From Pseudomonas phage vB_PaePAO1-KEN19: a DNA stretch of 64,000 bases. The stretch is from sequence record PP456878.1; one strand, given 5' to 3'. A model generated the notes under the pieces. It searched no databases. It saw only the letters and a program-made list of their open reading frames with translations, and had not been told where the DNA came from. Numbering within the stretch: position 1 is the stretch's first letter; each line of letters begins with the position of its first letter. Positions 1 through 50,472 of the stretch are shown piece by piece. The position numbers and the translations under genes were made by a program.

Positions 1-659
1 AACTTTTTAATAGTTTCAGATTTTCCAACACAACGCTCGGTTTTATCAATTAATGAAAAACCAATAGTCCTAATTGGTTCATCCTTATTATGGAAGCTAT
101 AATTGGTAATACTCATACCTACCAATAGTCCATTTTTATCTACATTAACTACTTTAGAATCAGTGTACTTATAAATATCATTGATTGCATAACCAGCTGA
201 ATATAATACATCTTTAAAATGACTAGTTACTTTATCAATAATAAAGTTTTGATAATCTGATTGATATAGTTTATCACTATATTCAAGCTTTTTGATAATA
301 TCACTTAGTTCATGATACACATTAGTAAAACTATTCGAAAAATAATTATCTTTTATTCCTAACCTAGTTAACAGATCTAGCTGGATTTCTTTTTTAGATA
401 GTTTCGTAGAATTACTAAGTTTTTCAATGACGGATGTAATTGTACGTAGATCAATTGCTAGTGAAAGTGATTTAAAGATATTATTAATTGGTGTATCAGA
501 TAGCTTTGAAATAGCTATTAGTAGATTATCTAATTCATCATTAGTAATTTTCAGTTCTTTCACAATGTCATTATATTCAATTAGTTTACCATCAATAATA
601 TTACAGATTAGAAGTTTATGTAATTCTTTAATAGTGGTATTAACTTGTAGATTATTCAT
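1..659 (-). CDS. hypothetical protein, 3' end beyond the window edge (ATG at 659-657 after AAAAGG-type RBS; open minus frame runs to position 1)
   Basis: My own reverse-complement translation ([33 protein letters not shown]...) stays open for about 220 codons to the window edge. The track shows only a short antisense plus ORF here. Confidence 0.5.
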
Positions 660-679
660 TTTTTTACCTTTTAGTTAAT

Positions 680-1117
680 TTAAAATTTATTTACAGTTCT
701 AAGAAAATATTCAGATGGATCGTCGAAGAAGACAATACTATCAACAACACTATTTTGTCGAGTACACCTTACTTTGATAAGATTATATTCTCTGAATTTA
801 TTAAGACCCCAAGCTTCTTTAGCACGATGGCGTAATCCACTACCAACAATAGCCCCATACCTAGTTTGTTCAACAAATAAATAAACATCCCAGCCATGAT
901 GATTATCATGGTATTTTGCGTAGTATTTATTGTCTTTAGTTTTGTTTAAACTAAGACTATACCTTTCTGTCTGTAGTTGATTAATATTCGATTTAATCAT
1001 TTCATTTAATTTGGGTTCCACTATATGAATGACATCGCCAGCAGTAGTGGCCATTACCTTTAGTTTGTGATGCACGTTCGTAAGAACGTCCTCCCAAATG
1101 TTAGTAACTACGTCCAT
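680..1117 (-). CDS. hypothetical protein (145 aa)
   Basis: ORF in the minus-strand gene block, preceded by a terminator and TATATTAC promoter cassette. Confidence 0.55.
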   Translation of the reverse strand: MDVVTNIWEDVLTNVHHKLKVMATTAGDVIHIVEPKLNEMIKSNINQLQTERYSLSLNKTKDNKYYAKYHDNHHGWDVYLFVEQTRYGAIVGSGLRHRAKEAWGLNKFREYNLIKVRCTRQNSVVDSIVFFDDPSEYFLRTVNKF

Positions 1118-1159
1118 CTATTAAAACCTCGACACATTAATTTGATTTTGTAATACACA

Positions 1160-1196
1160 CATGTAATATATATCTCAAATAAAATTTAGTGCAATA
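1160..1196 (-). promoter_or_regulatory. putative phage early-type promoter: minus-sense TATTGCACTAAATTTTATTTGAGAT-ATATATTACATG, core TATATTAC
   Basis: The TATATTAC core sits about 43 nt upstream of the ATG at 1117. The same box recurs at 16280-16316, 9535-9573, 25062-25100 and 38852-38895. Confidence 0.45.
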
Positions 1197-1216
1197 GCCC
1201 TCCCCGAAGGGAGGGC
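1197..1216 (-). terminator. GC-rich hairpin gccctccc-cgaa-gggagggc, terminator of upstream minus gene
   Basis: An 8-bp GC stem in AT-rich DNA, immediately 3' of the stop of gene 1229-1558. Confidence 0.5.
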
Positions 1217-1228
1217 CATATGCTCTTA

Positions 1229-1558
1229 TTATCGATTAACTACACGATAATTATCAATAATAAACTCGATGTACTGTTCGACATCATGTAAGAAGCAGTT
1301 GTAACTATACCGATCAAGTTTATTTAAAGCTTCAGTTAGAACTGGTTCGATATAGATATTTATTTCAGCTATTGATGGAATCTCAACATACTTGTTTTCA
1401 TATTCGGTAAGCTGCTCCTTTACCTTAGCCATTTGCTTTTTGTAAATGTATTCCATCGACCATTCTTTATAAATGGAACGTGCCCCATCAAAGAGATGGT
1501 AACCAAATGCAATACCACCAAGCACCAGAACACCAGTGGAAATAGTTGACATATTCAT
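1229..1558 (-). CDS. hypothetical protein with N-terminal transmembrane segment (109 aa)
   Basis: ORF with a hydrophobic N-terminus (ISTGVLVLGGIAFGY). Confidence 0.55.
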   Translation of the reverse strand: MNMSTISTGVLVLGGIAFGYHLFDGARSIYKEWSMEYIYKKQMAKVKEQLTEYENKYVEIPSIAEINIYIEPVLTEALNKLDRYSYNCFLHDVEQYIEFIIDNYRVVNR

Positions 1559-1589
1559 GACATATCTCCTTTTTTCAAGATTGAATTCA

Positions 1590-1606
1590 CATTAGTAATA
1601 TACTGT
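1590..1606 (-). promoter_or_regulatory. putative promoter, minus-sense AACAGTATATTACTAATGTG (TATATTAC core)
   Basis: Exact TATATTAC about 38 nt upstream of the ATG at 1558. The extended box TATATTACTAATGTG is identical to the copy at 38852-38868. Confidence 0.45.
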
Positions 1607-1642
1607 TAAAATATGTTTGAATACAAAAAATAAAATATAAAG

Positions 1643-1658
1643 CCTCCCCGAAGGGAGG
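1643..1658 (-). terminator. hairpin cctccc-cgaa-gggagg followed (minus sense) by TTTATATTTTATTTTTTG
   Basis: GC stem followed by a T-run on the minus strand, right after the stop of gene 1687-2214. Confidence 0.55.
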
Positions 1659-1686
1659 ACTTTATGGTGACTTTGTAAAAGACTTA

Positions 1687-2214
1687 TTATAGTTGAAAGT
1701 CTTTATCTTCTTCAATGATTTCATAACCTGGTAAATTAACTATATTTTTATTTAAACGAACTCGTTCATCTACTAGGTATTTAACTACTTTAAGTAATTG
1801 ACTTATCGACAGGTCATTATTTTCATCAGTATCTGATTTAAAAATACGACCACTGGTAGGTGAAGCATTCGTAAAACAAATACCTTCATTATCTTTATAA
1901 ATATCATAATACCATACGACATATGGATTATTGGTATTACTTATGACAAATACTAAAAACAGATCTTCATCATCACCTTGACCATTCAGGATCCCGATAT
2001 TTTTTCGATGCGTTATACCACCTGTAATAACTAGGCCGTTGACATCATCACTGAATTTAAATATATCATACCCACCTTCAAGTTTACCATTTTCAAAATA
2101 CTGTAATAGCGCACCACCTACTACAGCACCCCATGAAAAGAAGTTATCTTTATTTAAATGCTCAACCATCTTAAAAATCCTCTTTAGGTTCAGTGATCCG
2201 AGAATAAAGAACAA
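1687..2214 (-). CDS. hypothetical protein (175 aa)
   Basis: ORF in the tightly packed minus block. Confidence 0.55.
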   Translation of the reverse strand: MFFILGSLNLKRIFKMVEHLNKDNFFSWGAVVGGALLQYFENGKLEGGYDIFKFSDDVNGLVITGGITHRKNIGILNGQGDDEDLFLVFVISNTNNPYVVWYYDIYKDNEGICFTNASPTSGRIFKSDTDENNDLSISQLLKVVKYLVDERVRLNKNIVNLPGYEIIEEDKDFQL

Positions 2215-2312
2215 ACATATCAGTTAGGATATTTCTATCTAGAATGGTACGTGTAAGTAAGATTCCATATTGAAATATACCTGTAGTATACAAATTATAA
2301 AACAACATAAAA

Positions 2313-2337
2313 AGAGAGAGGATAAATTCCTCTCTCT
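2313..2337 (-). terminator. hairpin agagagagg-ataaatt-cctctctct
   Basis: A 9-bp stem directly after the stop of the small ORF 2356-2478. Confidence 0.4.
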
Positions 2338-2355
2338 TTATGCAACTAAATAGTT

Positions 2356-2478
2356 TTATTCTTTTTGCTTTTCTTTAGCTTCACGTTTAGCTTTGAGTTC
2401 TGCATTATTAAGCCGCCAAGCAGCTTGCATAGTAGCTAGATTGACAAACTTAGGCTGTTGCTTATTTTTAACTTTCAT
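2356..2478 (-). CDS. small Lys-rich ORF (40 aa, MKVKNKQQPKFVNLATMQAAWRLNNAELKAKREAKEKQKE), not in the ORF track
   Basis: Translated by hand. It fills the gap between genes and ends at a hairpin. Confidence 0.3.
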   Translation of the reverse strand: MKVKNKQQPKFVNLATMQAAWRLNNAELKAKREAKEKQKE

Positions 2479-2549
2479 TTGCTAATTCCAAATTTATTTC
2501 AAATGGTTAATCTAAACTATTAAATTGCTTCATATTCTTCATGCATAAT

Positions 2550-2843
2550 TTAATCCTCAGTCAGCGTAGTATAATCTACATAAAGATCATTGAGTTGCTC
2601 TTTTAATGAAATATTTATTTTTAATTCATTAAGAGTAATCCTATTCCAATGTTTACGCGGATTACCACATAGCATACAACGAGACCTACCGCAGTTAAAC
2701 GGATTATGTTTACGCCATTTACCTTTAGCCTTTGCTGAAGGATTAGTGTCATTATAACGACTCTCGGCTAGTGAAACATAATAATTAACTATACGAGTAT
2801 TGTGATGACGATTAAGTTGTGCAGATAGTTTGTTGCTTGACAT
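2550..2843 (-). CDS. hypothetical protein with Cys cluster (CGRSRCMLCGNPRK), possible zinc ribbon (97 aa)
   Basis: ORF with a CxxxxCxxC motif and an AGGTGGAG-type RBS upstream. Confidence 0.5.
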   Translation of the reverse strand: MSSNKLSAQLNRHHNTRIVNYYVSLAESRYNDTNPSAKAKGKWRKHNPFNCGRSRCMLCGNPRKHWNRITLNELKINISLKEQLNDLYVDYTTLTED

Positions 2844-2942
2844 ATTTATACTCCACCTTAATACCCCTACCCCAATATGGAGTAGGGTAAAGTATGTAGT
2901 AGAGTAAATTTAATACATTAACTTTTAACATTCTAAACTTCA

Positions 2943-3443
2943 TTAATTTTCCACAATATCCTGGATGGTACGTAGACTTTCTTGCATTGTCAGTAAGAAA
3001 TTACGATAAGGTTCACTGGTGTCCAAAAAAGGTGGCATGTTTAACCTATTAGTAACCTCTTCTAGAAATTCTTTATACTTATAAAGATTAATAGTGAATT
3101 TATTACAATCTGGATCAGTAGTAGTTGGGATAATATAATTACGAATAATGTAGTAAATATGAAAACTGCTACCATATTCAATTAAAGTATAAGGATTATC
3201 ATCAATGAATTTCTGTGCTTCTTTTCCTTTTAAGGCGAAATCTTCTCGTTCAACGATTTCATGAAGTAGCGGCCCTAAGAATTGCATTGGAATCACACCA
3301 TACATTTTAGTGAATTCCTTAATATATTTATATGTTACTTTTGGATTAGGATATACCTCACGATTCCTACCAATATTTCTAACTAGATATAGTTTTTCTT
3401 TTACTAAGATATTTTCGATGCATAGTTCATCTTTAAATAGCAT
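2943..3443 (-). CDS. hypothetical protein (166 aa)
   Basis: ORF in the minus block. Confidence 0.55.
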   Translation of the reverse strand: MLFKDELCIENILVKEKLYLVRNIGRNREVYPNPKVTYKYIKEFTKMYGVIPMQFLGPLLHEIVEREDFALKGKEAQKFIDDNPYTLIEYGSSFHIYYIIRNYIIPTTTDPDCNKFTINLYKYKEFLEEVTNRLNMPPFLDTSEPYRNFLLTMQESLRTIQDIVEN

Positions 3444-3492
3444 AAAATATTTTCCTTTTAATAAGATGGTATTAAACTTTTTTCTTTATTGA

Positions 3493-4326
3493 CTAATATT
3501 TTCTTCGTTCGATATCCTGTAGTTTCGCGAATGTGTCGAGCTTGTATTGGTCAACAAAATGCCAGGCTAGATCGGTAAGTGTATAGATGTCCGGACGTTC
3601 GTATTTACCGAAGTCTGGTTTCTCACGACTCAATTGAAAATCGATGAACTGATCTAATATAGGGCAACGATCTATCAGATCCTGTTCAATAGACCCAACC
3701 TTATCATTAACCAGTTCTTGGATACGTTTATAAAGGATAGGATCTGACAGAAGAGGCAGTAGGTCATGGAATACCATCGGCGGATGTTCCAGACTTTCAC
3801 GGACCCACATTGCAGCCAACAGAGGACGAAGAGAATAGAAGTATTTCTTCATCCGGATCTTCTCATCTGACAACCAACGCATTTTGGTTTGTTTGGCCAT
3901 CGAGATATAGTGCATGTAACTCGATTCAGGGATGAAGTGCTTTAGCGCAGCATCACGGATTAACTTGTAGTCCCGATCAACCTTACGGTAAACGATTGGG
4001 GAGTTTAGCCATTCCAAGAGAGTGGGGTTAGACTTGTAAGCAAGCTGAAGAGTCTTAGTGATACTCCAACCAGCTAGGTCTAGTTCTTTAGACACCATCT
4101 CTTCAATAGTATCACGTGCTTCATTATCCACACGAACATAATGACTCGGATGGTTAACGTAAATGAAACGAACGTCATAGTCACTATTAGTTGAAGCAAA
4201 GCCCCATCCACGACTACCGGACTCACAAGCATAAATAATCTTTACACCATATTTCTTTTCGATACGGTCTAGTTCTACATTAATCGTTACCCGCATCTCA
4301 TCGTTAACTGGATGACGTTGATCCAT
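3493..4326 (-). CDS. nucleotidyltransferase, pol-beta superfamily (277 aa)
   Basis: G-S-x10-D-Y-D motif (ESGSRGWGFASTNSDYDVRF), typical of the NTase fold. Its size fits the predicted-nucleotidyltransferase families found in phages. Confidence 0.5.
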   Translation of the reverse strand: MDQRHPVNDEMRVTINVELDRIEKKYGVKIIYACESGSRGWGFASTNSDYDVRFIYVNHPSHYVRVDNEARDTIEEMVSKELDLAGWSITKTLQLAYKSNPTLLEWLNSPIVYRKVDRDYKLIRDAALKHFIPESSYMHYISMAKQTKMRWLSDEKIRMKKYFYSLRPLLAAMWVRESLEHPPMVFHDLLPLLSDPILYKRIQELVNDKVGSIEQDLIDRCPILDQFIDFQLSREKPDFGKYERPDIYTLTDLAWHFVDQYKLDTFAKLQDIERRKY

Positions 4327-4733
4327 TATCCACCAACCTTTTCAAATTTGAGTTTTTCTTCTTTACCTGTGTCCAGATACATGAACATCGATGTACCCAG
4401 CAAGTTGTATACAAACCAACCTTTGCTCACAAGTTCCTCTTCGAATTTCAGTGGTGCCGATAGTTCGCATATAGCCTCGTACGGGATGACAATAGGCTCT
4501 TTCTCGGGCTTAGTAAGAATCAGTGCATGATCTGCAAGCTTCAACCATTGCTTGCGACTACTGATACCAAGACCAATACTAAACTCTTCACCTGGATCTT
4601 TTCCGTTAAAAAGGCTACAGCGAGTTTCTTTGGTTACTCTATTACCGGCGATACCGATCGTGAGAGGATCAGGAAAGACCCCCATCAGTTCAATAACCAT
4701 TTCAAGTTGACGCTTCAGTTCAGTGTTGTTCAT
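4326..4733 (-). CDS. hypothetical protein, partner of the NTase by TAATG-type overlap (135 aa)
   Basis: Its stop overlaps the start of the downstream NTase gene, suggesting translational coupling. Confidence 0.5.
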   Translation of the reverse strand: MNNTELKRQLEMVIELMGVFPDPLTIGIAGNRVTKETRCSLFNGKDPGEEFSIGLGISSRKQWLKLADHALILTKPEKEPIVIPYEAICELSAPLKFEEELVSKGWFVYNLLGTSMFMYLDTGKEEKLKFEKVGG

Positions 4734-4841
4734 AGGACAAATTCCTTTGTATTGTATTTACGTACTACATCGGTCCACTAGGCAGGAGTCTGTGCATAGT
4801 AGTATTCGCTGAATATCCCAAATGAACCATAGGGAAATAAA

Positions 4842-4859
4842 GCCTCCCCAAAGGGAGGC
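4842..4859 (-). terminator. hairpin gcctccc-caaa-gggaggc then minus-sense TTTATTTCC
   Basis: Hairpin immediately 3' of the thyA-family stop, followed by a T-tract on the minus strand. Confidence 0.6.
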
Positions 4860-4866
4860 ATTTATG

Positions 4867-6333
4867 TTAGACAGCAACTTTACCAGCAATGTGTGAATGA
4901 TATTCGTAGTTTTCGATAACAAAATCATCTACACCAATTTCCCGAATATCTTTACCAATAGCTTCTTGTTTGAAACGAATAGTTGGTAGAACCTTCGGTT
5001 CACGAGTTAATTGAAGATCAGTCTGTTCTTGGTGATTAGAGTAAATATGTACATCACCACCAGTCCAGATAAACTCTTCAGCAATCATATTCATTTGGTT
5101 AGCTAACATGTGAGTCAGCAGACTATAGAATGTGATGTTAAAGGGTTTTCCTAAGAAAGTATCACAAGATCTTTGATAGAGTTGACAACTGATGGCTCGT
5201 TTCGGAGCACCATGTTGATCCAGCCATTCTACTACTGCTTCATCTGTAGCCTTTTCATAACCACGACAGACACGCAGAAGTGCTTTAACCTGCTCAGCAC
5301 TATCGAATGGAGGTTGACCACGAGTAATCTCACCACTAATCTTATCATGATAAGCATCAGCTTCGAACTGGGTTTGGTCTAGAGCTTGCACTCGTTCATC
5401 TACGGTCAGTTCACGGGTCCAGAACTGAATAAATGCGTGGCAAGGTGGGAGTGCCTGCTCATCAATAAGATGTGGCGCCCATGCACAAACAATGATCCGA
5501 CGAGAATCCGGGTTGGTGCGAAGTTGATCGATGATGTCTTGGATTTGGTCGATACGTCGAGTAACCACGCATCTATCGGTTTCCATGGTTGTACCTGGGA
5601 TATCCGCCACGAAGTCAAAACCACGCTTCTCATAATCAAACCACTCATATTTAGGGATTACACGAGTGTCTTCAAGATTACGCCATGTCTTACCGTAAAC
5701 AGCACCTAGATCGCCGCCGACCAGACGCTCTGGTTCTTTATGCATCAAAGCACGATACAGTCGCTTGTTATATTCAGCACGAATACCTTCAGGATTTTTG
5801 GCTTCATCGAACCCTTCAGTAGCGAACCTATTCCACGACGTTACGCTAACTCCAATGATGTATTGGATTTCCTCACGGTTAACTGGATATTCATCCCAGA
5901 AGGCCTGAATAGTCTCTGGAGTCATACCCGACTCGAATTCCGCTACAGTCTCAATGAATGGAGTAGAGTCATCGTTCATACAATGTAAGTACATTACGAA
6001 TGGGGCACCAATGAGGGCAGTTACTGCTTTAAGAACGGCCTCATCGGTCATCGGCTCATATACTGCGGTTTCAGGTTTAACCCACTCGTTCCAGATGCGT
6101 ACACCATTAGCGATCAGGTAATCCACCTTAGTATCACCTGACAGCATCCAGAACAATTCATGAATTACAGAAGCTAGATGAATCTTCTTGGTGGTTACAA
6201 CTGGTAGCTGATTATTACGCAGACTATAACGTTCTTGTTGACCAAACATGCTCTGAGTACCAGTACCAGTACGGTCACCTTTATGTACACCGTGTTCTTT
6301 AACTAAACGGATTGAATTAAGATATTGTTCCAT
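4867..6333 (-). CDS. thyA: thymidylate synthase family enzyme with three large insertions (488 aa): ThyA or dUMP hydroxymethylase
   Basis: The N-terminus carries the DRTGTGT motif and the catalytic Cys lies in LPPCHAFIQF. The block LSCQLYQRSCDTFLGKPFNITFYSLL is near-identical to E. coli ThyA, the dUMP-specifying Asn (PFN) is kept, and the C-terminus is GDVHIYSNH. Insertions of about 130, 30 and 70 aa sit between conserved blocks. Confidence 0.8.
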   Translation of the reverse strand: MEQYLNSIRLVKEHGVHKGDRTGTGTQSMFGQQERYSLRNNQLPVVTTKKIHLASVIHELFWMLSGDTKVDYLIANGVRIWNEWVKPETAVYEPMTDEAVLKAVTALIGAPFVMYLHCMNDDSTPFIETVAEFESGMTPETIQAFWDEYPVNREEIQYIIGVSVTSWNRFATEGFDEAKNPEGIRAEYNKRLYRALMHKEPERLVGGDLGAVYGKTWRNLEDTRVIPKYEWFDYEKRGFDFVADIPGTTMETDRCVVTRRIDQIQDIIDQLRTNPDSRRIIVCAWAPHLIDEQALPPCHAFIQFWTRELTVDERVQALDQTQFEADAYHDKISGEITRGQPPFDSAEQVKALLRVCRGYEKATDEAVVEWLDQHGAPKRAISCQLYQRSCDTFLGKPFNITFYSLLTHMLANQMNMIAEEFIWTGGDVHIYSNHQEQTDLQLTREPKVLPTIRFKQEAIGKDIREIGVDDFVIENYEYHSHIAGKVAV

Positions 6334-6533
6334 TACTTGATCCTCGGATTGTCTACTAGTCCACAGTTGAACCAGAGATGTTTATCATGGCGGCGCTCAT
6401 CACTAATAGATACGATCGTACCCTTACCATCTTTAAAGTTAATAATCAATGCCCGAACTCGACCATGGGTGAGAGCATTGAAAATTTTGTACGACTTTAC
6501 ACTGAATGCGATTCTTTCATCAAGACGATCCAT
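6333..6533 (-). CDS. small hypothetical protein (66 aa), TAATG overlap with the thyA-family start
   Basis: An AGAGGAA RBS sits 8 nt upstream of the ATG, and the stop overlaps the downstream start. Confidence 0.5.
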   Translation of the reverse strand: MDRLDERIAFSVKSYKIFNALTHGRVRALIINFKDGKGTIVSISDERRHDKHLWFNCGLVDNPRIK

Positions 6534-6560
6534 ACTTTATTCCTCTAGTCTTACTAATAA

Positions 6561-6854
6561 TCACAGATCAACCTCTATCCGTTTGTATTTGATTTCAACC
6601 GGAATACCTAATTCATTTTTTACAAGATTAAATGAGTTTTTTGATGGAGTGTATGTAGCAATTATAACGGCTTGACTATCAGCTACAGCTACATCTCGCC
6701 ATTCCATGTGCATGTTATCGAAATCATCTTTACCCATAATCAAGTAATAAGACGTATCATTATGCGTAATGGTATTTTCAAACGGTCTAATTACAAAAGC
6801 ACTTAAACTAGACTGTATACGGTGTCCTACTTGTTCAAGTGTAACTGTATACAT
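6561..6854 (-). CDS. hypothetical protein (97 aa)
   Basis: ORF with an AGGAGG RBS upstream (ctaggaggttttATG). Confidence 0.55.
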   Translation of the reverse strand: MYTVTLEQVGHRIQSSLSAFVIRPFENTITHNDTSYYLIMGKDDFDNMHMEWRDVAVADSQAVIIATYTPSKNSFNLVKNELGIPVEIKYKRIEVDL

Positions 6855-6875
6855 AAAACCTCCTAGACGGCATAC

Positions 6876-6895
6876 GGGAGTCCCGAAGGACCCCC
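6876..6895 (-). promoter_or_regulatory. 5'-UTR hairpin ggggguccuucgggacuccc (perfect only as minus-sense RNA via G-U), 20 nt upstream of an AGGAGG RBS
   Basis: The stem needs a G-U wobble that forms only in the minus transcript, and no T-run follows. I call it a leader or processing structure rather than a terminator. Confidence 0.35.
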
Positions 6896-6959
6896 TAAGC
6901 GCAACTAACCAATCGGCCAGTATTTTGCCTATAATATTAGTCTATTAAAAGTATTTTTA

Positions 6960-7667
6960 TTACAGACCAATACGAGTCAAAATTTCAGCCCAACCTTTCT
7001 CTTTAGCATATCGCAATAGGCTATTTTCAATATGGGTTTCACTATAGACAATAGGCTCATGACCACCTTGTACATGATACATTGTTAATGGTTCCACCAC
7101 ATGTTGACTAGACCAAGCATCGTATAAACGATCATTGATTTTAATCACCACATATACCATCAATTTATCGTCGATGTCAAGATCAATACCTGCTACAAAT
7201 GCATTAACATTGGAACGCACTTGGTCAGCAGTTAGTTGCACTTGCAGCCCGCCATGTACTTCAAATTCGATATCACAGATATTCTTATTTAACCAAGTAT
7301 ACACTGCCTGATTAGCATATGTCTCAATTGGATCACTACTACGTAAATCTATTAATGGACCATATGTTTCTAATGATGAGACACTGGTATCAACTAAGTC
7401 ATTCAATGAGTATTCGGTACTAGAACAACTATCTAAAACACAGATAGTGTTATCCTCGATATGGATAGGTAATACCTTGAATACCACATTAGCAACATTA
7501 GGTAATGACGTATCTGGTTCAGAACTATTGAATGGAGTATAAAATAATCGATCAGCCACTTCAGTATCAATAGTTGATACATCCATTGGAATGAATCCAT
7601 TAAGATCTTGTTTGATTACGTCATTGTGTCCAATTCCAGAAAAAGATAAATACATTTTCTCAGACAT
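6960..7667 (-). CDS. hypothetical protein (235 aa)
   Basis: ORF in the minus block. Confidence 0.55.
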   Translation of the reverse strand: MSEKMYLSFSGIGHNDVIKQDLNGFIPMDVSTIDTEVADRLFYTPFNSSEPDTSLPNVANVVFKVLPIHIEDNTICVLDSCSSTEYSLNDLVDTSVSSLETYGPLIDLRSSDPIETYANQAVYTWLNKNICDIEFEVHGGLQVQLTADQVRSNVNAFVAGIDLDIDDKLMVYVVIKINDRLYDAWSSQHVVEPLTMYHVQGGHEPIVYSETHIENSLLRYAKEKGWAEILTRIGL

Positions 7668-7675
7668 ATCCGTAC

Positions 7676-7933
7676 CTATTTATTTACACAGATTAGAGTA
7701 TGTTCTACTTTACTGGTACTAGAAGAAAAATAACGTAATAGAACACCATCGCTGATTTTTACAGTCTCTACATTATTACGAATAGCACTTGCTTTAGCTA
7801 GTTTTTGAATACGCTCAATCGCGCTAAAACAAGTAGTCATGTCAGAGAACTCAGTAGTTGACTGCGATGCACCATTGGCTTGATAACCAGCGATACTGAT
7901 ACTACTAAAAAGAATTGCTAAAGTTGCATTCAT
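7676..7933 (-). CDS. small protein with signal-peptide-like N-terminus (85 aa)
   Basis: MNATLAILFSSISIAGYQANGA looks like a signal peptide. It has a 4-nt overlap with the upstream gene. Confidence 0.5.
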   Translation of the reverse strand: MNATLAILFSSISIAGYQANGASQSTTEFSDMTTCFSAIERIQKLAKASAIRNNVETVKISDGVLLRYFSSSTSKVEHTLICVNK

Positions 7934-8838
7934 TTCTTACCACCTTTAATAACAGTGAGTTTTGGTGGACCAGTAGGACGAGAAGGTTTATTAATAATAA
8001 TCTGCGAATTGGAAGAATTATTGAAATCCTCAACCATCTTATTTACATCATTGTCAAATGAATTAGATGTATTATCACCCGAGTCCACAGTTGATTCACT
8101 AACCACATTTGAAATAGGGTAACTGAGGAGTTCCATCATAAGTACATTGATGTTATCCTGATAGTTTTCATTACGTGTACAATTAATAACCCGCTCACAC
8201 CAATCCATAATTAATTCTGGTGCATTCTGTTTAATTGCAGTTACCGCTACTCTAATATGTGCATCTAATTCTGGATTACTAAATTCAGTTACTCTGTTAA
8301 TGGCGCTTTCAATCATCTGATCATGCTCATTCTCAGATGTATTCCTTACAACTAACTTACCATTAGTGGTATCGGCTTTATTTTTAAAATTAACCTCAGT
8401 GACATTACCTACGGTAGTTAATACTGGGTTTTTGTCAACTACATTATTAACAGTTCCTTCTAATGTTGCACGAATAGTATCTGCATTGAGATATCTATCC
8501 ACTAGCGGCATTTCAAAGAATGCGTTAGAATTATCATCAATAGGTGTAACTACACCCAATACTGCATAAAGAGGAAGTTTAATACTGACCCCAACTCCAT
8601 TTACTGTTACATTGAAAGAGATATATTCGTCACTGATATAAAAATTCTTTGCACAGCGTGGATGGATATTGAAAGTGATAGTGTGATCTTCTTTCGCATG
8701 CTTTAGAGCTACCTCAGATAAATCAGGTACTAATTGAGTATGTGCTACAATTAGAATATCTCTGAAGTTATTCTCAAGAAACCAATCATAGGTAGCTCGA
8801 AGAATATGGCCAGTAAGTAATGATTTTACCTTTAGCAT
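7930..8838 (-). CDS. hypothetical protein (302 aa)
   Basis: ORF in the minus block. Confidence 0.55.
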   Translation of the reverse strand: [302 protein letters not shown]

Positions 8839-9501: not shown

Positions 9502-9534
9502 TATAACTACCTATTTTGATATGACTTGACCAAA

Positions 9535-9573
9535 TATGTAATATAGATTTCAAAAAAAATTTAATGCAATAAA
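9535..9573 (-). promoter_or_regulatory. putative promoter, minus-sense TTGCATTAAATTTTTTTTGAAATCTATATTACATATT (TATATTAC core)
   Basis: Same cassette architecture as 1160-1196, immediately after hairpin 9574-9593. Confidence 0.45.
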
Positions 9574-9593
9574 GGAGAGCTAAATAGCTCTCC
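9574..9593 (-). terminator. hairpin ggagagc-taaata-gctctcc
   Basis: Stem-loop 10 nt after the stop of gene 9603-9893. Confidence 0.45.
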
Positions 9594-9602
9594 TATTTAT
9601 GC

Positions 9603-11272: not shown

Positions 11273-11788
11273 TTATTTAACATTTCTAGGTGTTAGTTCG
11301 ATATGTGAACAGATCACATAAGATGCACATGCCAGTACATCTAAACCATAATACTCATCATAATGGAAATATCCTCTGAGATTACCTTGTTTAGTAAAGG
11401 TGTATTCATCAGCTAAATCTAACTCGTTACTTGTCTCTAGCACATTGATTAATTTATCATATTCAACTTTTAGTGCTATATCAGTACAGATTATTTGCTT
11501 GATATATTTATCAGAGTTTGGATCATTTTTATAATCTAAAGTATCAGTTAATACAGTGGTTAATGCTAGAATAACATAGTCATGGTAACTTTCCGGTTGT
11601 TTAATCTCACCTTCAGGTATTTCAATCCATTCCCAACCATGTCGTAATATATTTAGCATTACATGCCACTTATTGGTTTCATTACTAACCACAGCTATTG
11701 GTGAATCATTATAAGGTTTATACAAACCTGTTGTTTTTAAAAGATCTTTTTTAATAGCAGCTATATATAACGGGCGGTTTTCTGACAT
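11273..11788 (-). CDS. hypothetical protein (171 aa)
   Basis: ORF in the minus block. Confidence 0.55.
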   Translation of the reverse strand: MSENRPLYIAAIKKDLLKTTGLYKPYNDSPIAVVSNETNKWHVMLNILRHGWEWIEIPEGEIKQPESYHDYVILALTTVLTDTLDYKNDPNSDKYIKQIICTDIALKVEYDKLINVLETSNELDLADEYTFTKQGNLRGYFHYDEYYGLDVLACASYVICSHIELTPRNVK

Positions 11789-15940: not shown

Positions 15941-16238
15941 ATTGTTCAAATTTGATTTTGATATATCCACCACCAACATTAGGCTGCTTAGGTCTTAGCC
16001 ATCCTAGATTAAGATCCATATTCAAAACAAACGTATAAGCTGTTACTCCATTTTCATCATCAACACTAATGGAGTGCCATCCATCATGATTTTGATCTTT
16101 AAGAGAATGGATTTTGGGATATAGTTGATTATGATTCAAATCAAATACTGTAACATCTCCAATTGATCTAATTGGATAACCGCGAGATCCTAAATGATGG
16201 GCTCCTCTGCGGTCCAGTGAAATAATAGCTTCGTTCAC
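15939..16238 (-). CDS. hypothetical protein (99 aa)
   Basis: ORF downstream of the duplicated promoter cassette. Confidence 0.55.
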   Translation of the reverse strand: MNEAIISLDRRGAHHLGSRGYPIRSIGDVTVFDLNHNQLYPKIHSLKDQNHDGWHSISVDDENGVTAYTFVLNMDLNLGWLRPKQPNVGGGYIKIKFEQ

Positions 16239-16279
16239 GATAATTACCTCATGTAGATGTTTCCATTAGTATATGCTAA

Positions 16280-16316
16280 TCTATAATGTAGATCTCAAAT
16301 AAAATTTAGTGCAATA
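16280..16316 (-). promoter_or_regulatory. putative promoter cassette, second copy of the 1160-1196 element (variant core TACATTAT)
   Basis: The 45-nt stretch 16292-16336 is identical to 1172-1216 (atctcaaataaaatttagtgcaatagccctccccgaagggagggc). Confidence 0.4.
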
Positions 16317-16336
16317 GCCCTCCCCGAAGGGAGGGC
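16317..16336 (-). terminator. hairpin gccctccc-cgaa-gggagggc (identical to 1197-1216)
   Basis: Exact repeat. It lies 3' of the stop of gene 16349-16579. Confidence 0.5.
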
Positions 16337-16348
16337 TTTATGACAACA

Positions 16349-17308: not shown

Positions 17309-17398
17309 GTATTAGAATCTCCTATATATGTTGATTATATCACATTTGTGATATACTGTTTAAAATGCTTTGAATGTATAAACCACTATGTTGGTCAA

Positions 17399-25061: not shown

Positions 25062-25100
25062 CCTGTAATATAGATTTAAATTAATTTATAATGAATGGCA
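25062..25100 (-). promoter_or_regulatory. putative promoter, minus-sense ATTCATTATAAATTAATTTAAATCTATATTACAGG (TATATTAC core 25065-25072)
   Basis: Exact core, with the same spacing to hairpin 25105-25123 as in the other cassettes. It lies about 45 nt upstream of the ATG at 25018. Confidence 0.45.
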
Positions 25101-25104
25101 TAAA

Positions 25105-25300
25105 GGAGCCCCTGGTGGGCTCCTTTAATGTAATAGGTCCGACCCCTATCTAGAGGTCGGTGAGTAGCAAGGCACCGTAGTTGGGGTTCGTGTCGTTCCT
25201 GACGATACTTTAGTACCCCGGTTTATTTACGACTGGATCACCCCCTTAAAGTGCAGTGCGTTTTACGCAAACTGCCTTGCTCTATATCATTGCACTGTGC
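25105..25300. ncRNA. GC-rich structured element in a divergent intergenic region: hairpin 25105-25123, hairpin 25139-25160, and an 8-bp long-range helix (gcaaggca 25167-25174 with tgccttgc 25273-25280) enclosing nested stems. Candidate small RNA or leader structure.
   Basis: Local GC content far exceeds the flanking DNA. Multiple nested complementary segments are visible by eye, and there is no ORF. Confidence 0.3.
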
Positions 25301-25328
25301 GTATTTTTATTCGTTAGCTAATCTTATG

Positions 25329-25350
25329 ACTTAGAGTTATATTTACATAC
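25329..25350 (+). promoter_or_regulatory. putative plus-strand promoter, variant box TTAGAGTTATATTTACATA about 20 nt upstream of the SNF2 gene RBS
   Basis: Resembles the minus-strand TTTGAGAT-TATATTAC boxes, with one extra T in the core. An ATTGCACT box like that of cassette 1160-1196 sits at 25289-25296. Confidence 0.3.
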
Positions 25351-25368: not shown

Positions 25369-27480
25369 ATGATAGACTCATTTAGGAAGCTAATGGGCTC
25401 GCTATCAATTACTGAAACTGATCAAGAAATTATCATCAGTGGTTTTGATGGTGCTGCATTCATTAGAGATATTAACAAGTATTGGCGAACCACTAAATTA
25501 GCTACGCAGTTATTTAACACGGTTAGTCGTCGTAGTATTTCATTTTATAAATTCTTTGCTCCTGAAATATATTACATGCTAGAAGCAGTAAAGAATTATA
25601 GAAGTAGATACATCTCTATTAAAACTGTTAATGCCATCCGTGAAGCAATGCTTCAATATACCTGGTTAAAAAATACTCGTCCTGTAGATACCAACTCTGT
25701 ACCAGGTAGACTCAATTTCAAGATGTTAGACAAATTGACATTTACACCAGATGAGTCTCAAAAAGCTTATTTTGAAAATTATAATTATCGAATTGACCAG
25801 TATGGTTTACGTGGTGATATTGTTGCAGGTAAACCTGGTACTGGTAAGACATTCATGACGATGGCTATTGCTGAAATGGTTGAGTCGGATATCATTATAG
25901 TTGTTTGTGAAAAGAAGTCTATTGATCTAATATGGAAGCCATCTATTATTGAGATGTATAAGGAAAGACAAAAAGTATGGTCGACCATTGATGATAAAGC
26001 CTACAACGGTCAAAGAATACTTATATCCCATTACCAGGCGCAAGATAAAATAATTGATCTATTAAGAAGCGGTATATTCAAAGGTAAGAACATTACGGTG
26101 ATTCTGGATGAATCACACAATATGAACGATCCTAATTCTGCACAATCTCTTAAGTTCCAGCAAATATGTTTTATGTCTAACTCTAATAACAGATTATTAG
26201 CGTCAGGTACCCCTGTTAAAGCACTTGGTTCTGAATTAGTAAGTGCATTAAGAGTATTAGACGATCTCTTCACCAATGAGGTTGAAGAACGTTTTAAGAA
26301 AGCATTTGGAAAAGAGACACAGAAAGGATTAGATATTGTCCAACATCGCTTTGGGTTAATTGCGTACGTCATTGAAAAGAAAGATACTGAGGTTTTACCA
26401 CCGAGGATAAAAGCGTATCGTATCAAGATACCAAATGGATCACAGTATACTCTTAATGCCATTAAACGTGATTGTGAAGCTTTTATTAGAGAACGTGTAA
26501 AGTTCTATGCTGCGCGCCGACCAGAAGATGAGAAGTATTGGGCTAAACTAATGGCGATACACGAGAACTCTCTTAAGACCCAGGCGCAGAAAGATGGTTT
26601 CGCTCGCTATAAGAATTTGATTAAAATAATTCAGAAGAATCAAGACCCGCGATACATTGGTGAAGAAATTAAAGAATCTAACCAATATGAAAAAATGTTT
26701 ATAGAGCCAACTTTACCTCGTAATGAAATAGCTGCTTTTAGAGATATTAAATCAGTTATAAAATACGTTATGCTAAAGATACAAGGTGAATGTTTGGGAA
26801 GGGTTTTAGGTGCTAAACGCATTCAGTGCCATGTGGACATGGTACCGTATATTGACTGGGTTGGTATCACTGAATCAACTATGAAGAAAACGATTGCATT
26901 TACATCGTTTGTTGAGGTTGTTGATACTGTTGATAAGTACACCAATAAATTAGGTATGCATCCGGCGGTGGTGTATGGTAAAACCAATGACAATTTACCT
27001 CAAATAATCAGTAGATTTGAGAAAGACCCTAAATTAAATCCATTGGTAGCTACATATGCTTCCCTTTCAACAGCGGTCCGTATGACGATGGCTGATACTA
27101 TGGTGACAATTAATTCACCGTTTAGACATTACATTCTAGAACAAGCTATTGCTCGAATTTACCGTAAAGGTCAGGATTCACAAACAGTCGTATATCAATG
27201 TACTCTCGATACAGAAGATGAACCGAATATCTCAACAAGGTCAGATGACATTCTAAAATGGAGTCAGGCAATGGTTGAAGCTATTATGGGTATTAAATCT
27301 CCATTTGAGATCACAGAGTCATTAGAAAGTTATGTTGATAAAAATAATAATTTTGATGAAAATAAAATCATTTATCAGATGCTAAAAGAATCATTTGAGA
27401 AGTATGATATCGCAATTGATTTTAATGACTTTGATACACGTATGTATAAACCATATCAGCCCGCATATATGCGGTTTTAA
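25369..27480 (+). CDS. SNF2-family (SF2) helicase/ATPase, 703 aa
   Basis: Walker A is AGKPGTGKTF, motif II is VILDESHN, motif III is LLASGTPV, and motif VI is QAIARIYRKGQ (SNF2-type QxxGRxxRxGQ). An AAGGAAAA RBS lies upstream. Confidence 0.7.
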   Translation: MIDSFRKLMGSLSITETDQEIIISGFDGAAFIRDINKYWRTTKLATQLFNTVSRRSISFYKFFAPEIYYMLEAVKNYRSRYISIKTVNAIREAMLQYTWLKNTRPVDTNSVPGRLNFKMLDKLTFTPDESQKAYFENYNYRIDQYGLRGDIVAGKPGTGKTFMTMAIAEMVESDIIIVVCEKKSIDLIWKPSIIEMYKERQKVWSTIDDKAYNGQRILISHYQAQDKIIDLLRSGIFKGKNITVILDESHNMNDPNSAQSLKFQQICFMSNSNNRLLASGTPVKALGSELVSALRVLDDLFTNEVEERFKKAFGKETQKGLDIVQHRFGLIAYVIEKKDTEVLPPRIKAYRIKIPNGSQYTLNAIKRDCEAFIRERVKFYAARRPEDEKYWAKLMAIHENSLKTQAQKDGFARYKNLIKIIQKNQDPRYIGEEIKESNQYEKMFIEPTLPRNEIAAFRDIKSVIKYVMLKIQGECLGRVLGAKRIQCHVDMVPYIDWVGITESTMKKTIAFTSFVEVVDTVDKYTNKLGMHPAVVYGKTNDNLPQIISRFEKDPKLNPLVATYASLSTAVRMTMADTMVTINSPFRHYILEQAIARIYRKGQDSQTVVYQCTLDTEDEPNISTRSDDILKWSQAMVEAIMGIKSPFEITESLESYVDKNNNFDENKIIYQMLKESFEKYDIAIDFNDFDTRMYKPYQPAYMRF

Positions 27481-31163: not shown

Positions 31164-31652
31164 TTAGACTTTTAGTCCACGAATATTGAAGATTATTTGA
31201 CAAGCTGCAATTATTCTATTTCTAGAAATCTTTACAGGAATTTTATAGTGATTGAGTACAGCTTTAGGATTCTCAACACTCATCAATTCTTTAAGTAATT
31301 CGTCGCTAATTTTATTATGTGTCAGGACAAAGGTTGCGACATCGTGGTCCCAGCATCGTTTTATTGCACTACAAGCACGAATATACTTCTCGGCTAATTC
31401 GGGGCTAAAATCTAATGCTTCTAGCCATCTTTTGCGACCAGCAGTGTAAATCACTCGTGTACGAGTATTCGATGGGACAGCTACAATGTAGCCTGTACCT
31501 GGTGTCCTACGTTCTTCAATAGGTCTGATATTCCAATCACCAATCGTCCTAATTAGTGTAGATAAATCATCATTAGCACCATAGTAGCCAATAGGTAAAC
31601 CTAAACTAACTTGTTTATCTATCTGGTCTACAGTTTGATGTGTAATAACCAT
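31164..31652 (-). CDS. hypothetical protein (162 aa)
   Basis: ORF in the minus block. Confidence 0.55.
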   Translation of the reverse strand: MVITHQTVDQIDKQVSLGLPIGYYGANDDLSTLIRTIGDWNIRPIEERRTPGTGYIVAVPSNTRTRVIYTAGRKRWLEALDFSPELAEKYIRACSAIKRCWDHDVATFVLTHNKISDELLKELMSVENPKAVLNHYKIPVKISRNRIIAACQIIFNIRGLKV

Positions 31653-31762
31653 TGTAGTTCTCTTCCCAATAGGGTTTTATAAACTTCCACAAGACTAAAC
31701 TCCATTATAGTCCTATCAGATTGGGTAATAAAACTTAACAAAAAAAATATTAAACATAAAAC

Positions 31763-31782
31763 CCTCTCCCGAAGGAGAGGGT
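31763..31782 (-). terminator. hairpin ccctctcc-cgaa-ggagaggg then minus-sense TTTTATG
   Basis: Stem 3' of the stop of gene 31794-32156. Confidence 0.5.
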
Positions 31783-31793
31783 AATATATAACT

Positions 31794-32156
31794 TTATCCA
31801 TACATTACGAAAGGTACTTCGTAAACAATTAGATAAGTATACATTAGTTTAAAACCAATGTGTAACCACTGATCTTGATTAAATGTAATTTTATTATCAC
31901 ATTTTAAATAATCAATAATGCAGTGAGAAATTGTTTCAATAAGTCCTAAAACTAATGAACCAGTAATGAAATAAACTGCGCCACCATGCATGAAGCTGTG
32001 TGCAGGTAATACCCATTTCCAATATAGTGAACCTAGTTCAGTAGTATGATTTTTAGCCTTTGCAATGAAATCATTTTGCAATGAAAAATCAAAGATGAAG
32101 TGCGCTACAATTAAACCAAAGAATAATGCCATTGAGTTGACACTGATTAATTCCAT
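31794..32156 (-). CDS. polytopic membrane protein (120 aa)
   Basis: Several hydrophobic segments (MALFFGLIVAHFIFDF, AVYFITGSLVLGLIETI, LMYTYLIVYEVPFVMY). Confidence 0.55.
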   Translation of the reverse strand: MELISVNSMALFFGLIVAHFIFDFSLQNDFIAKAKNHTTELGSLYWKWVLPAHSFMHGGAVYFITGSLVLGLIETISHCIIDYLKCDNKITFNQDQWLHIGFKLMYTYLIVYEVPFVMYG

Positions 32157-35770: not shown

Positions 35771-35839
35771 TTGATATACCTTTTAACAAAAAAATTATAA
35801 AGAAGAGTCCCCATAATGGGGACTCTATTATATCGTGCT

Positions 35840-38812: not shown

Positions 38813-38851
38813 TATGATTCCTCTTTACTAGATAGTTATTTTCCTAATTAC

Positions 38852-38895
38852 ACATTAGTAATATAAATCTCAAATTTTTTTTAATACGATATAAA
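38852..38895 (-). promoter_or_regulatory. putative promoter, minus-sense TTTGAGATTTATATTACTAATGTG (TATATTAC core 38858-38865)
   Basis: Exact core and extended box, about 45 nt upstream of the ATG at 38812. Confidence 0.45.
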
Positions 38896-39983: not shown

Positions 39984-48756
<8,773 letters not shown>

Positions 48757-48819: not shown

Positions 48820-50472
48820 ATGAAGAAGGCATTAGTTCCTTTTAATATTTCTTTACTTATTCCTACTAAAGAACAATTAAAGTTCTTAGGTCAAGTAAAG
48901 AGTCATGAGATATTTGAAGGTTTAGGTGGTAACTTTCATGAAGATGGTTTGTTCTCTGTTTCCATTTTTGGAAGAGTTGGATCAACTGATCGTGAGAGTT
49001 TATTTGGATATATTCATTTAGGTTTAGAACTTATCCATCCAGCTGTATATCGAAACTTAATTAAATTAAAAGCTTTCTATGAAGAAATTATTCTTGGTAA
49101 GGCATTTGCAGTATTTGACGAATCTATTAAAGATTTTATCCGCGCCGATGAACTAACTGGTAAAACTGGTTATACATTCTTTTTTGATAACTGGAAACGA
49201 ATTGACTTTGGGTCCACTAAGTCAGGGGTTCGGCTATCAAGGTTACAATTAATCGAAAAATATAAAGATAACTGTATTTTTAAAGACATGCTTGTAACAC
49301 CAGCCGCTTATCGTGATGCAGAGATTGATGAGAATAATCGTGTTGAGATGGATGAGATCAATGAACACTATAGGTATCTATTAAATCAGTCGTTTGGTGT
49401 ACCTGATAGCTTTGGACCAAATGATGACTTGAGTATCTATGATCGCAAACGAGTAGCAATGCAAAACACCGTATTAGCTATTTATGAACATTATGAACGA
49501 CTGCTATCCGGTAAACGTGGATACATTCAATCTAAATGGGCATCCCGTCGTATTGCCAATGGTACACGTAACGTCATTAGTTCGCTAGATACTAATGCTG
49601 CTGATCTTGATTCACCTAATCGACCAACATTCAAAGATGCCGTAGTTGGCTTACATCAAGCAGCTCGTTCAGTTGCACCGCGTACAATCTTTGCACTAAG
49701 GCAAGGTGTAGTTGGTGAAGTGTTTGATACAGTTACTAACACTGTACAGCTCATCAATAAGAAAACACTACGTTTAGAATGGGTTGATATCTCTAACGAA
49801 GATATGGATCTATGGGGAACTCCTGAAGGGCAAGAACAAATCATCAATGAGTTAGATGTCATTGAAAAACGTTCACGTGCAATTGAAATTGCTGATCATT
49901 ATCTAGCCCTTATTTACGTTGATGATAAACAGAATTTTAAAATATTCCGCAACATCGATGAGTTACCTACTAATCTAAATAAGAAATTTGTTAGACCTAT
50001 TACTTATGCCGAATTAGTTTACCTTAGTGGATTAAGTATGTGGCGAACAAACTCAGCGTTTGTTACACGATATCCTGTAGAAAACTACAATAGCTCTATC
50101 CCCTGTAAGATGTATGTTAAAACAACCGTAGTGGGTGAATTACGTTATCCGTTAAATGATCAATGGGAACGTGATGATACGTTGGAACCAGCCTTAGAAT
50201 TCCCTGTGTTTGAATTAAATAAACCAGCCCAGTGGCATGACTCAGTATCCATCTCTCCTTCTATTCTCGCGCCATTGGGGGCGGATTTCGACGGGGACAC
50301 TGTATCATTTAACGCAGTTTATTCAGAGGAAGCTATCGCTGAAACAGATGCTTTCTTTAAGAAACGTATTGCATATATACATGCCGATGGTCGACTGGCA
50401 TTTAGTGTTGGTATCCATACACTCAATTTAACTCTTCGGTACATGACTGGGGAACCCAAACAAAGGGATTAA
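48820..50472 (+). CDS. multisubunit RNA polymerase beta-prime subunit, N-terminal fragment (550 aa)
   Basis: DGLFSVSIFG..GYIHLGLELIHPAVY aligns with beta-prime GLFCERIFG..GHIELAAPVAHIWF, and the catalytic motif is LAPLGADFDGDTVSF (NADFDGD). No zinc-finger cysteines are present. Confidence 0.75.
   Translation: MKKALVPFNISLLIPTKEQLKFLGQVKSHEIFEGLGGNFHEDGLFSVSIFGRVGSTDRESLFGYIHLGLELIHPAVYRNLIKLKAFYEEIILGKAFAVFDESIKDFIRADELTGKTGYTFFFDNWKRIDFGSTKSGVRLSRLQLIEKYKDNCIFKDMLVTPAAYRDAEIDENNRVEMDEINEHYRYLLNQSFGVPDSFGPNDDLSIYDRKRVAMQNTVLAIYEHYERLLSGKRGYIQSKWASRRIANGTRNVISSLDTNAADLDSPNRPTFKDAVVGLHQAARSVAPRTIFALRQGVVGEVFDTVTNTVQLINKKTLRLEWVDISNEDMDLWGTPEGQEQIINELDVIEKRSRAIEIADHYLALIYVDDKQNFKIFRNIDELPTNLNKKFVRPITYAELVYLSGLSMWRTNSAFVTRYPVENYNSSIPCKMYVKTTVVGELRYPLNDQWERDDTLEPALEFPVFELNKPAQWHDSVSISPSILAPLGADFDGDTVSFNAVYSEEAIAETDAFFKKRIAYIHADGRLAFSVGIHTLNLTLRYMTGEPKQRD

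Follow-up and report, generated by a model that had tools for sequence, protein, structure and literature searches.

Probable phiKZ-type early promoters and intrinsic terminators in a 64,000-nucleotide stretch of Pseudomonas phage vB_PaePAO1-KEN19

A 64,000-nucleotide stretch of Pseudomonas phage vB_PaePAO1-KEN19 (PP456878.1), which we call the window, carries recurrent cassettes on its minus strand that are very probably phiKZ-type early promoters joined to intrinsic terminators. A sequence-only reading of the window had described these cassettes as a GC-rich hairpin followed by the core TATATTAC, and had taken that core for the consensus of the phiKZ early promoters, which the virion RNA polymerase reads. 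Both parts of this assignment hold up. TATATTAC is the published phiKZ consensus (PMC7058600 Table 2; see also PMC7598289), and the literature assigns the early promoters to the injected virion RNA polymerase, independently of the host polymerase (PMC13282480). As early promoters and intrinsic terminators of phiKZ, these elements are already known.

Judging from BLAST, the window is from a phiKZ-type Pseudomonas jumbo phage, a strain of phiKZ. The whole window is collinear with the reverse complement of phiKZ from ~172.6 to 238.5 kb, with 88-99.9% identity, so the minus strand of the window is the leading strand (plus strand) of phiKZ. Over positions 1-8000, identity is 100% with Pseudomonas phages PaZh_1 and PA_ZH1, and 98% with PA7-type phages. 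Positions 1100-1700 match 51 phage records, all from Pseudomonas phages, with PaZh_1 at 100% identity and phiKZ at 96%.

Seven probable early promoters and their terminators

All seven sites that had been proposed are present. They are intergenic, lie on the minus strand, and point along the phiKZ leading strand. Five have the exact core TATATTAC, one has TATATCAC, and one has TACATTAT. The predicted features are listed here; A and B are two promoter subfamilies that are described below.

1155..1194, minus strand: cassette 1 early promoter, subfamily A, core TATATTAC at 1163-1170; orthologue of phiKZ 237287
1197..1216, minus strand: cassette 1 terminator hairpin, GCCCTCCC-TTCG-GGGAGGGC; fold -25.7 kcal/mol, z -5.7
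1587..1626, minus strand: cassette 1b early promoter, subfamily B, ATTCAAACATATTTTAACAG-TATATTAC-TAATGTGA, core at 1595-1602; orthologue of phiKZ 236855
1643..1658, minus strand: cassette 1b terminator hairpin, CCTCCC-TTCG-GGGAGG, then CTTTAT; fold -16.9 kcal/mol, z -4.5
9530..9569, minus strand: cassette 2 early promoter, subfamily A, TTGCATTAAATTTTTTTTGAAATC-TATATTAC, core at 9538-9545; orthologue of phiKZ 228592
9573..9594, minus strand: cassette 2 terminator hairpin, AGGAGAGCT-ATTT-AGCTCTCCT, then TTATT; fold -18.6 kcal/mol, z -5.3
16275..16314, minus strand: cassette 3 promoter-like element, subfamily A, core TACATTAT at 16283-16290; orthologue of phiKZ 221848
16316..16337, minus strand: cassette 3 terminator hairpin, AGCCCTCCC-TTCG-GGGAGGGCT, an exact duplicate of cassette 1; fold -20 kcal/mol
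17340..17379, minus strand: early promoter without a GC hairpin, subfamily B, ATTCAAAGCATTTTAAACAG-TATATCAC-AAATGTGA, core at 17348-17355; orthologue of phiKZ P109
25057..25096, minus strand: cassette 4 early promoter, subfamily A, ATTCATTATAAATTAATTTAAATC-TATATTAC, core at 25065-25072; orthologue of phiKZ 213064
25101..25127, minus strand: cassette 4 terminator hairpin, TAAAGGAGCCC-ACCAG-GGGCTCCTTTA; fold -19.2 kcal/mol, z -5.3
38850..38889, minus strand: cassette 5 early promoter, subfamily A, TCGTATTAAAAAAAATTTGAGATT-TATATTAC-TAATGTGT, core at 38858-38865; orthologue of phiKZ P099
38896..38913, minus strand: cassette 5 terminator hairpin, GCCTCCC-TTCG-GGGAGGC, then TTTAT, after gp184; fold -16.7 kcal/mol

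Some details of the sequence-only reading need correction. The site at 16280-16336 is not a copy of TATATTAC: its core at 16283-16290 reads TACATTAT. The site at 1590-1606 had been called a reduced copy, but a terminator of its own precedes it (1643-1658), and its conserved upstream box is of another kind. The site at 17341-17362, also called reduced, does lack a significant hairpin (z -1.3), but it is otherwise a complete promoter of the second type, with the same box as at 1590-1606. Both of these "reduced copies" are evidently complete promoters of subfamily B.

The bare octamer TATATTAC is not enriched in the window (8 found versus 7.5 expected), so we tested the extended motif instead. 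We scored each site with a matrix for -22 to +16 relative to the core that had been built from the remaining sites, and every held-out site ranked 7th or better among the ~128,000 window positions. The upstream box alone, also with leave-one-out, gave ranks of 3-23 for six of the seven sites and a rank of 317 for the seventh. A literature pattern derived from 201phi2-1, TTTRARRNNTATATTAC, had three matches in the window, all of them among the seven sites, versus 0.33 expected. The extended motif family is enriched far beyond chance.

The sequence-only reading had stated that a similar density of the motif inside coding regions would speak against promoters. The exact cores are 43 times denser between genes than within them: six of the eight are intergenic, and intergenic sequence makes up 6.6% of the window (P ~ 2e-4, computed against sequence of intergenic composition). 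The exact core is not restricted to the minus strand, as had been claimed, since there is a plus-strand copy within a gene at 25568-25575. The minus-strand copy at 11644-11651 is also within a gene. Another minus-strand copy, at 31781-31788, abuts a terminator, ACCCTCTCC-TTCG-GGAGAGGGT (31761-31788 overall), right after the stop codon of gp197. There is no upstream box, and this copy is probably not a promoter. The open reading frame that covers this core (31628-31801) is not annotated in phiKZ. We rejected a weak matrix match at 35778 because its core abuts a start codon.

A genome-wide motif search, which had been proposed as a check, was run on phiKZ. The matrix was seeded with the seven sites and iterated over the whole phiKZ genome, and it gave 36 hits, of which 33 were strong. 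All 33 strong sites are on the leading strand and in annotated intergenic gaps (coordinates were read against the annotation tables). Their number is comparable with the 28-32 early promoters published for phiKZ, which have an extended -10 and a T-rich upstream region (PMC8244752; PMC10914365). The scan also recovers the PHIKZ054 promoter, which Wicke et al. name as early (PMC8244752). Within the part of phiKZ that matches the window, it gives exactly the seven sites plus one weak hit inside an annotated gene.

Mapped start sites in phiKZ point the same way. We used Tables S3-S5 of the preprint of Putzeys et al., which report ONT-cappable-seq of phiKZ and cross-reference P099 and P109 to Wicke 2021. 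P099 (transcription start site 199232) and P109 (220796), both labelled as early promoters, lie on the orthologues of the window sites with cores beginning at 38865 and 17355. At these two phiKZ sites, then, transcription does start just downstream of the boxes. Counted from the published start sites of P099 and P109, which are 15 nt after the first T, the core is at -15 to -8. The start site is 14-15 nt after the first T of the core for P099, P109, and four early promoters just outside the window, and AT-rich early motifs are known to lie ~10 nt upstream of early start sites in phiKZ (PMC7598289). The predicted start sites in the window are 1155, 1587, 9530, 16275, 17340, 25057, and 38850, which would give leaders of 29-39 nt at all seven sites. 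The published mode for phiKZ is 31-40 nt (PMC8244752), in agreement with these lengths.

Based on these positions, cassette 1 would drive the gp242 homologue (start codon at 1117) from a start site at ~1155, and cassette 1b would drive gp241 (start codon at 1558) from ~1587. Cassette 2 would drive gp230.2 and downstream genes toward thymidylate synthase, and cassette 4, the weakest match among the sites, would drive gp204. The promoter at 17340 lies upstream of gp216, which it drives; the start site at 17340 is where the published P109 string ends. The cassette 5 promoter, with its start site at ~38850, drives gp185. The five promoters beyond the P099 and P109 orthologues would be active as well.

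Several points weigh against this identification. The phiKZ orthologues at 213064, 221848, 228592, 236855, and 237287 have no start site in the preprint's table (this data set recovered only 18 early promoters). Cassette 3 has the core TACATTAT, and in phiKZ, gp218.1 is reached by read-through from P109. For both of these reasons, the cassette 3 copy, which lies upstream of gp218.1 (GTG start at 16238) and whose upstream half is identical to that of cassette 1, may be a weak or dead promoter. The experimental data are from phiKZ rather than from this strain. Finally, the published case for recognition by the virion polymerase is built on inhibitor data and on timing in vivo, and we did not find an in vitro reconstitution.

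The sequence-only reading placed a GC-rich hairpin before the core at five of the sites. Six of the seven promoters are 25-40 nt downstream of a strong hairpin; the exception is the 17355 site. In RNA folding, the six hairpins range from -16.7 to -25.7 kcal/mol (z from -4.1 to -5.7), and four of them have UUCG loops. Their tails are TTTAT or TTATT in four cases and TATT in cassettes 1 and 3. The cassette 1 hairpin, which is part of a 45-nt exact duplicate (see below), follows the stop codon of gp241, and the cassette 1b hairpin follows that of gp240. In phiKZ, ONT-cappable-seq mapped an intrinsic terminator on the orthologue of the cassette 5 hairpin, T088 (transcription termination site 199193), and another on that of the cassette 3 hairpin, T101 (221825). 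The longest TU169 read in phiKZ ends at 228569, on the orthologue of the cassette 2 hairpin, and the longest TU175/176 reads end at 236822, on the orthologue of the cassette 1b hairpin. The tables of the Putzeys et al. preprint have no terminator or read-end entry for cassettes 1 and 4. More broadly, the window has 27 perfect-stem GC-rich hairpins, of which 25 are intergenic if the unannotated open reading frame at 31628-31801 is dropped and 24 if it is kept. The first 20 kb has 22 terminator-like sites, versus 8.3 ± 3.0 expected. Rfam and tRNA scans of the window found nothing.

We propose that each cassette has two halves. The first would be an intrinsic terminator, with a GC hairpin that is often capped by C(UUCG)G and a short U/A-rich tail, and would end the upstream unit. 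The second, 25-40 nt further on, would be an early promoter of ~40 bp, read by a multisubunit RNA polymerase that is carried in the virion and co-injected with the DNA. The promoter would consist of a -30 box (T..A.T.AA), a -20 box (TTT(G/A)AGAT in subfamily A or TTTAAACAG in subfamily B), the core TATATTAC at about -15 to -8, and a conserved TG just before the start site. Initiation 14-15 nt after the first T of the core would yield leaders of 29-39 nt ahead of small early genes of unknown function.

The sequence-only reading took the TTTGAGAT box to go beyond the known consensus. This box and the AATGTG tail do not: the box and GTG are contained in the published consensus for 201phi2-1 (PMC7058600), and conservation at -10, -20, and -30 has been described for both phiKZ and 201phi2-1 (PMC11512511; PMC8244752). 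That reading also proposed ATTGCAC as an added element. In cassette 1 the -20 box is TTTGAGAT, and TTGCACTAAA is the -30 box, for which the 33 phiKZ sites share the pattern T..A.T.AA. The T and A of ATTGCAC belong to this box, but the other bases are the tail of the terminator. In the compact cassettes 1, 2, 3, and 4, the spacing between hairpin and core is 25-28 nt, and the tail of the terminator extends into the -30 box. Because the -30 box, read by eye, persists in promoters without an upstream hairpin, we assign the T and A to the promoter and the rest to the terminator tail of the cassette lineage.

Another proposal was that plus-strand operons belong to a different temporal class, as they show only degenerate variants of the motif. 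The class difference is right, but degenerate variants are not the reason. The plus-strand gp203 operon begins at a mapped late promoter of the TATG type, phiKZ P107 (transcription start site 212808; ~25329 in the window), whose start lies 31-46 nt downstream of a TATATCAT string. This confirms that the strands differ in temporal class. P107 maps to the plus-strand end of an unusually GC-rich stretch (25128-25330) in the 350-nt intergenic region that separates the divergent genes gp203 (plus strand) and gp204 (minus strand). This stretch has no match in the Rfam or tRNA scans, its minus-strand RNA fold has a z of -2.4, and a further hairpin, CCGACCTCTAGATAGGGGTCGG, lies within it immediately upstream of the cassette 4 terminator.

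More generally, the minus strand of the window carries homologues of PHIKZ182-243, and the plus-strand blocks are virion genes. The latter include two of the subunits that make up the virion RNA polymerase, both identified by mapping the open reading frame to phiKZ, where the annotation reads "RNA polymerase beta subunit / structural head protein":

48820-50472, plus strand: PHIKZ180 homologue, virion RNA polymerase subunit
50475-54830, plus strand: PHIKZ178 homologue, virion RNA polymerase subunit

The gp178/gp180-type virion polymerase is the enzyme that the literature assigns to the early promoters (PMC13282480). These subunit genes act in trans and are outside the cassettes. In phiKZ, PHIKZ179, a predicted intron-associated endonuclease, sits between them; this 1443-nt segment is missing from the window phage at ~50287, and the gp180 and gp178 genes are adjacent.

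Duplicated cassettes and possible recombination

The 45-nt identity between 1172-1216 and 16292-16336, which the sequence-only reading had pointed out, is exact and maximal. There are just two copies in the window, and the same pair is found in phiKZ. Unrelated proteins flank the two copies, which means that the cassette alone was copied, and we rejected a segmental gene duplication as the source for the same reason. Ectopic recombination or gene conversion between cassettes is the most likely origin of the duplicate. In phiKZ there are two further exact 53-nt duplicates among the early-promoter regions. The pair at 70339/246707 covers the promoter and the first transcribed bases, and the pair at 2665/4516 covers the core and ~36 nt of the leader. 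Exact pairs of differing extent suggest that ectopic exchange occurred repeatedly, and not that a discrete unit is mobile.

In addition to their role as signals, the cassettes might serve as patches of homology at which small early genes are swapped, duplicated, or converted, both within one phiKZ-like genome and between such genomes, like the PeSLs of T4-type phages, which are composite terminator/early-promoter motifs found at indel boundaries (PMC4122927). The window has six such composites, repeated with high conservation, and the cassette-only 45-nt duplicate with its unrelated flanking proteins and the two additional 53-nt pairs in phiKZ are as expected if cassettes recombine. Comparison with phage KTN4 is also suggestive. 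KTN4 differs from the window by 7 mismatches in 600-1216 and by ~80 in 1217-1561 (gp241), and the jump is exactly at the edge of the cassette 1 hairpin. Divergence falls again right after the subfamily B promoter and leader, which makes gp241 a divergent module with a cassette at either end. At the three positions where KTN4 departs from the window's cassette 1, KTN4's cassette 1 is the same as cassette 3. Also, a gene-replacement breakpoint (4827) is at the 3' edge of a terminator (4842-4859).

On the other hand, a change-point scan found that most of the strongest boundaries versus KTN4 or phiKZ are near gene ends, hundreds of bases from hairpins or early promoters. Of 14 change-points versus KTN4, about 3 are at cassettes, and of 14 versus phiKZ, about 0; there is no general enrichment. 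Differences from phiKZ that lie off the cassettes include a 322-nt deletion in gp239, a 60-nt indel at 38369, and the missing gp179. The duplicated tracts do not have fixed boundaries, and we compared just three genomes, with some events shared. Because most mosaic boundaries and phiKZ indels lie away from the cassettes, we think that a recombination role of this kind is rather unlikely.

Some local differences between the genomes are worth recording. The gp239 deletion, at 2243-2244 of the window, leaves a short remnant open reading frame at 2171-2308. The gp241 segment (1217-1561) is ~77-80% identical to KTN4 ~41878-42207, and its flanks are 92-99% identical. Footprinting against KTN4 was uninformative because the genomes are 97-100% identical at most sites.

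Two promoter subfamilies

The 33 phiKZ sites cluster into two groups, with a silhouette of 0.28, when the highest value among 500 column shuffles was 0.17. The 19 members of subfamily A have the consensus T..A.TAAAaa.tatTT.AGATc-TATATTAC. Subfamily B has 14 members, with the consensus T.tATT.AAA..atTTTAAAcag-TATATTAC-AaatnTGAtat. Both subfamilies, often behind a CCTCCC-TTCG-GGGAGG hairpin, are also found in phage PA1C and in IMG/VR contigs of 305-325 kb. (In the IMG/VR scans for the box and core, we used only contigs above 200 kb, which we took to be jumbo phages; the other hits were mostly single, scattered over unrelated contigs, and probably due to chance.) PA1C is outside the genus Phikzvirus, and when its positions 601-675 are aligned to window 1100-1700, the terminator and subfamily B cassette is the sole DNA detectable by BLASTN. 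The match includes the first transcribed bases, AAATGTGATAAAACTA. The terminator-plus-promoter architecture is evidently conserved in other jumbo-phage genera. The split between A and B may reflect function or merely copy history.

One functional explanation is that the partial dyad of subfamily B, TAT(A)TCAC-AAAT-GTGATA, is an operator for a dimeric phage regulator that shuts off early transcription, so that subfamily B would be regulated in a way of its own. At 17336-17355 the dyad is a near-perfect palindrome, TATATCAC-AAAT-GTGATATA; AAATGTGATA is found repeatedly in subfamily B, with conservation in PA1C and a 309-kb contig; and the subfamilies do separate significantly. However, the dyad is imperfect in most members of subfamily B, and its conserved TGA falls on the mapped start site and may thus be no more than the initiation region. 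The clustering can reflect copy history instead of function, and both subfamilies were detected as early promoters in the same preprint data set. An operator is possible but unsupported, and we consider it very improbable.

Even less credible is that the sites are host sigma-70 promoters, with TATATT as the -10 and TTGNAN as the -35 at 18-nt spacing, read by the Pseudomonas RNA polymerase as infection begins. There is a superficial resemblance in layout (TTGCAC or TTGTAT, an 18-nt spacer, and TATATT), and the site at 17334-17362 overlaps an extended -10-like string, TGnTATAAT, but the -35-like hexamers match TTGACA at just three of six positions (counted manually), when we asked for at least four of six matches to each of TTGACA and TATAAT at a spacing of 16-18 nt. 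By that definition, such matches are not enriched overall (84 versus 97.8 expected), and the 60 of these 84 that were listed include no match in which one of the seven sites supplies the -10 from its own core. Furthermore, conservation is highest in the core's AC, the -20 box, and the TG that precedes +1, none of which is a sigma-70 determinant, and phiKZ transcription is reported to be insensitive to rifampicin and independent of the host polymerase (PMC7598289; PMC13282480). We rejected host promoters because the sites fall short at the -35, because this class of match is not enriched, and because of the published independence from the host polymerase.

Relation to known systems

The probable early promoters and terminators of the window are textbook early signals of a model jumbo phage. 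They have been mapped in three transcriptome studies and are already used as parts for phage engineering. Our additions are minor: the split into subfamilies A and B across genera, the further exact duplicates among phiKZ promoters, and one gene module with cassettes at its boundaries. The subfamily split and the evidence for sequence exchange between cassette copies, if confirmed, bear on promoter recognition by the virion polymerase, which has no known sigma-like factor, and on how the many small early genes of phiKZ-like phages are shuffled. Putting these together, we can speculate that the cassettes are paralogous recombining modules, analogous to the T4 PeSLs, that shuffle or convert small early genes, and that they form two anciently conserved subfamilies that are perhaps recognized or regulated differently (A with TTTRAGAT; B with ATTYAAA-N5-TTTAAACAG plus AAATGTGA; in several jumbo-phage genera). 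We consider this combination rather unlikely.

The T4-type PeSLs (Arbiol 2010, PMC2839356; Comeau 2014, PMC4122927) have the same fusion of terminator and early promoter, are likewise repeated among small early genes, and have near-identical copies. As with PeSLs, at least one gene module here is bounded by copies. T4 PeSLs use a sigma-70 early promoter, whereas the promoter of these cassettes would be read by the virion polymerase. Also, PeSLs are defined by their place at indel boundaries, and for the window's cassettes the change-point scan gives no general enrichment of breakpoints.

The terminators can be compared with the intrinsic terminator motif of phiKZ, BCCYCCCCHWWDGGGRRGGBYTTATKYYGT (61 terminators; Putzeys 2024). 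The stem, CC(C/T)CCC-loop-GGG(A/G)GG, is shared with cassettes 1, 1b, 3, and 5, and the TTTAT tail is shared with cassettes 1b and 5. In contrast, cassettes 2 and 4 use other GC-rich stems, and in cassettes 1 and 3 the tail TATTGCAC replaces TTAT.

Among related phages, the published consensus strings are TTAWTAVAA_HYWTTTRARR_BTATATTACDWHDGTG for 201phi2-1 and TTTYAAACCTACATTATY for EL, and a consensus is also given for OBP (PMC7058600 Table 2). All three include the TTTGAGAT box, the core, and the GTG tail, and they merge what separates here into subfamilies A and B. The published core of EL is TACATTAT, the same as the cassette 3 variant (PMC7058600).

The closest counterparts are the early promoters of phiKZ itself (Ceyssens 2014; Wicke 2021, PMC8244752; Putzeys 2024, PMC10914365). 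These are from the same species and agree with the window's promoters in genomic position, core, -20 and -30 regions, placement, and leader length. Nothing essential is different, and the window strain differs by a few flanking bases.

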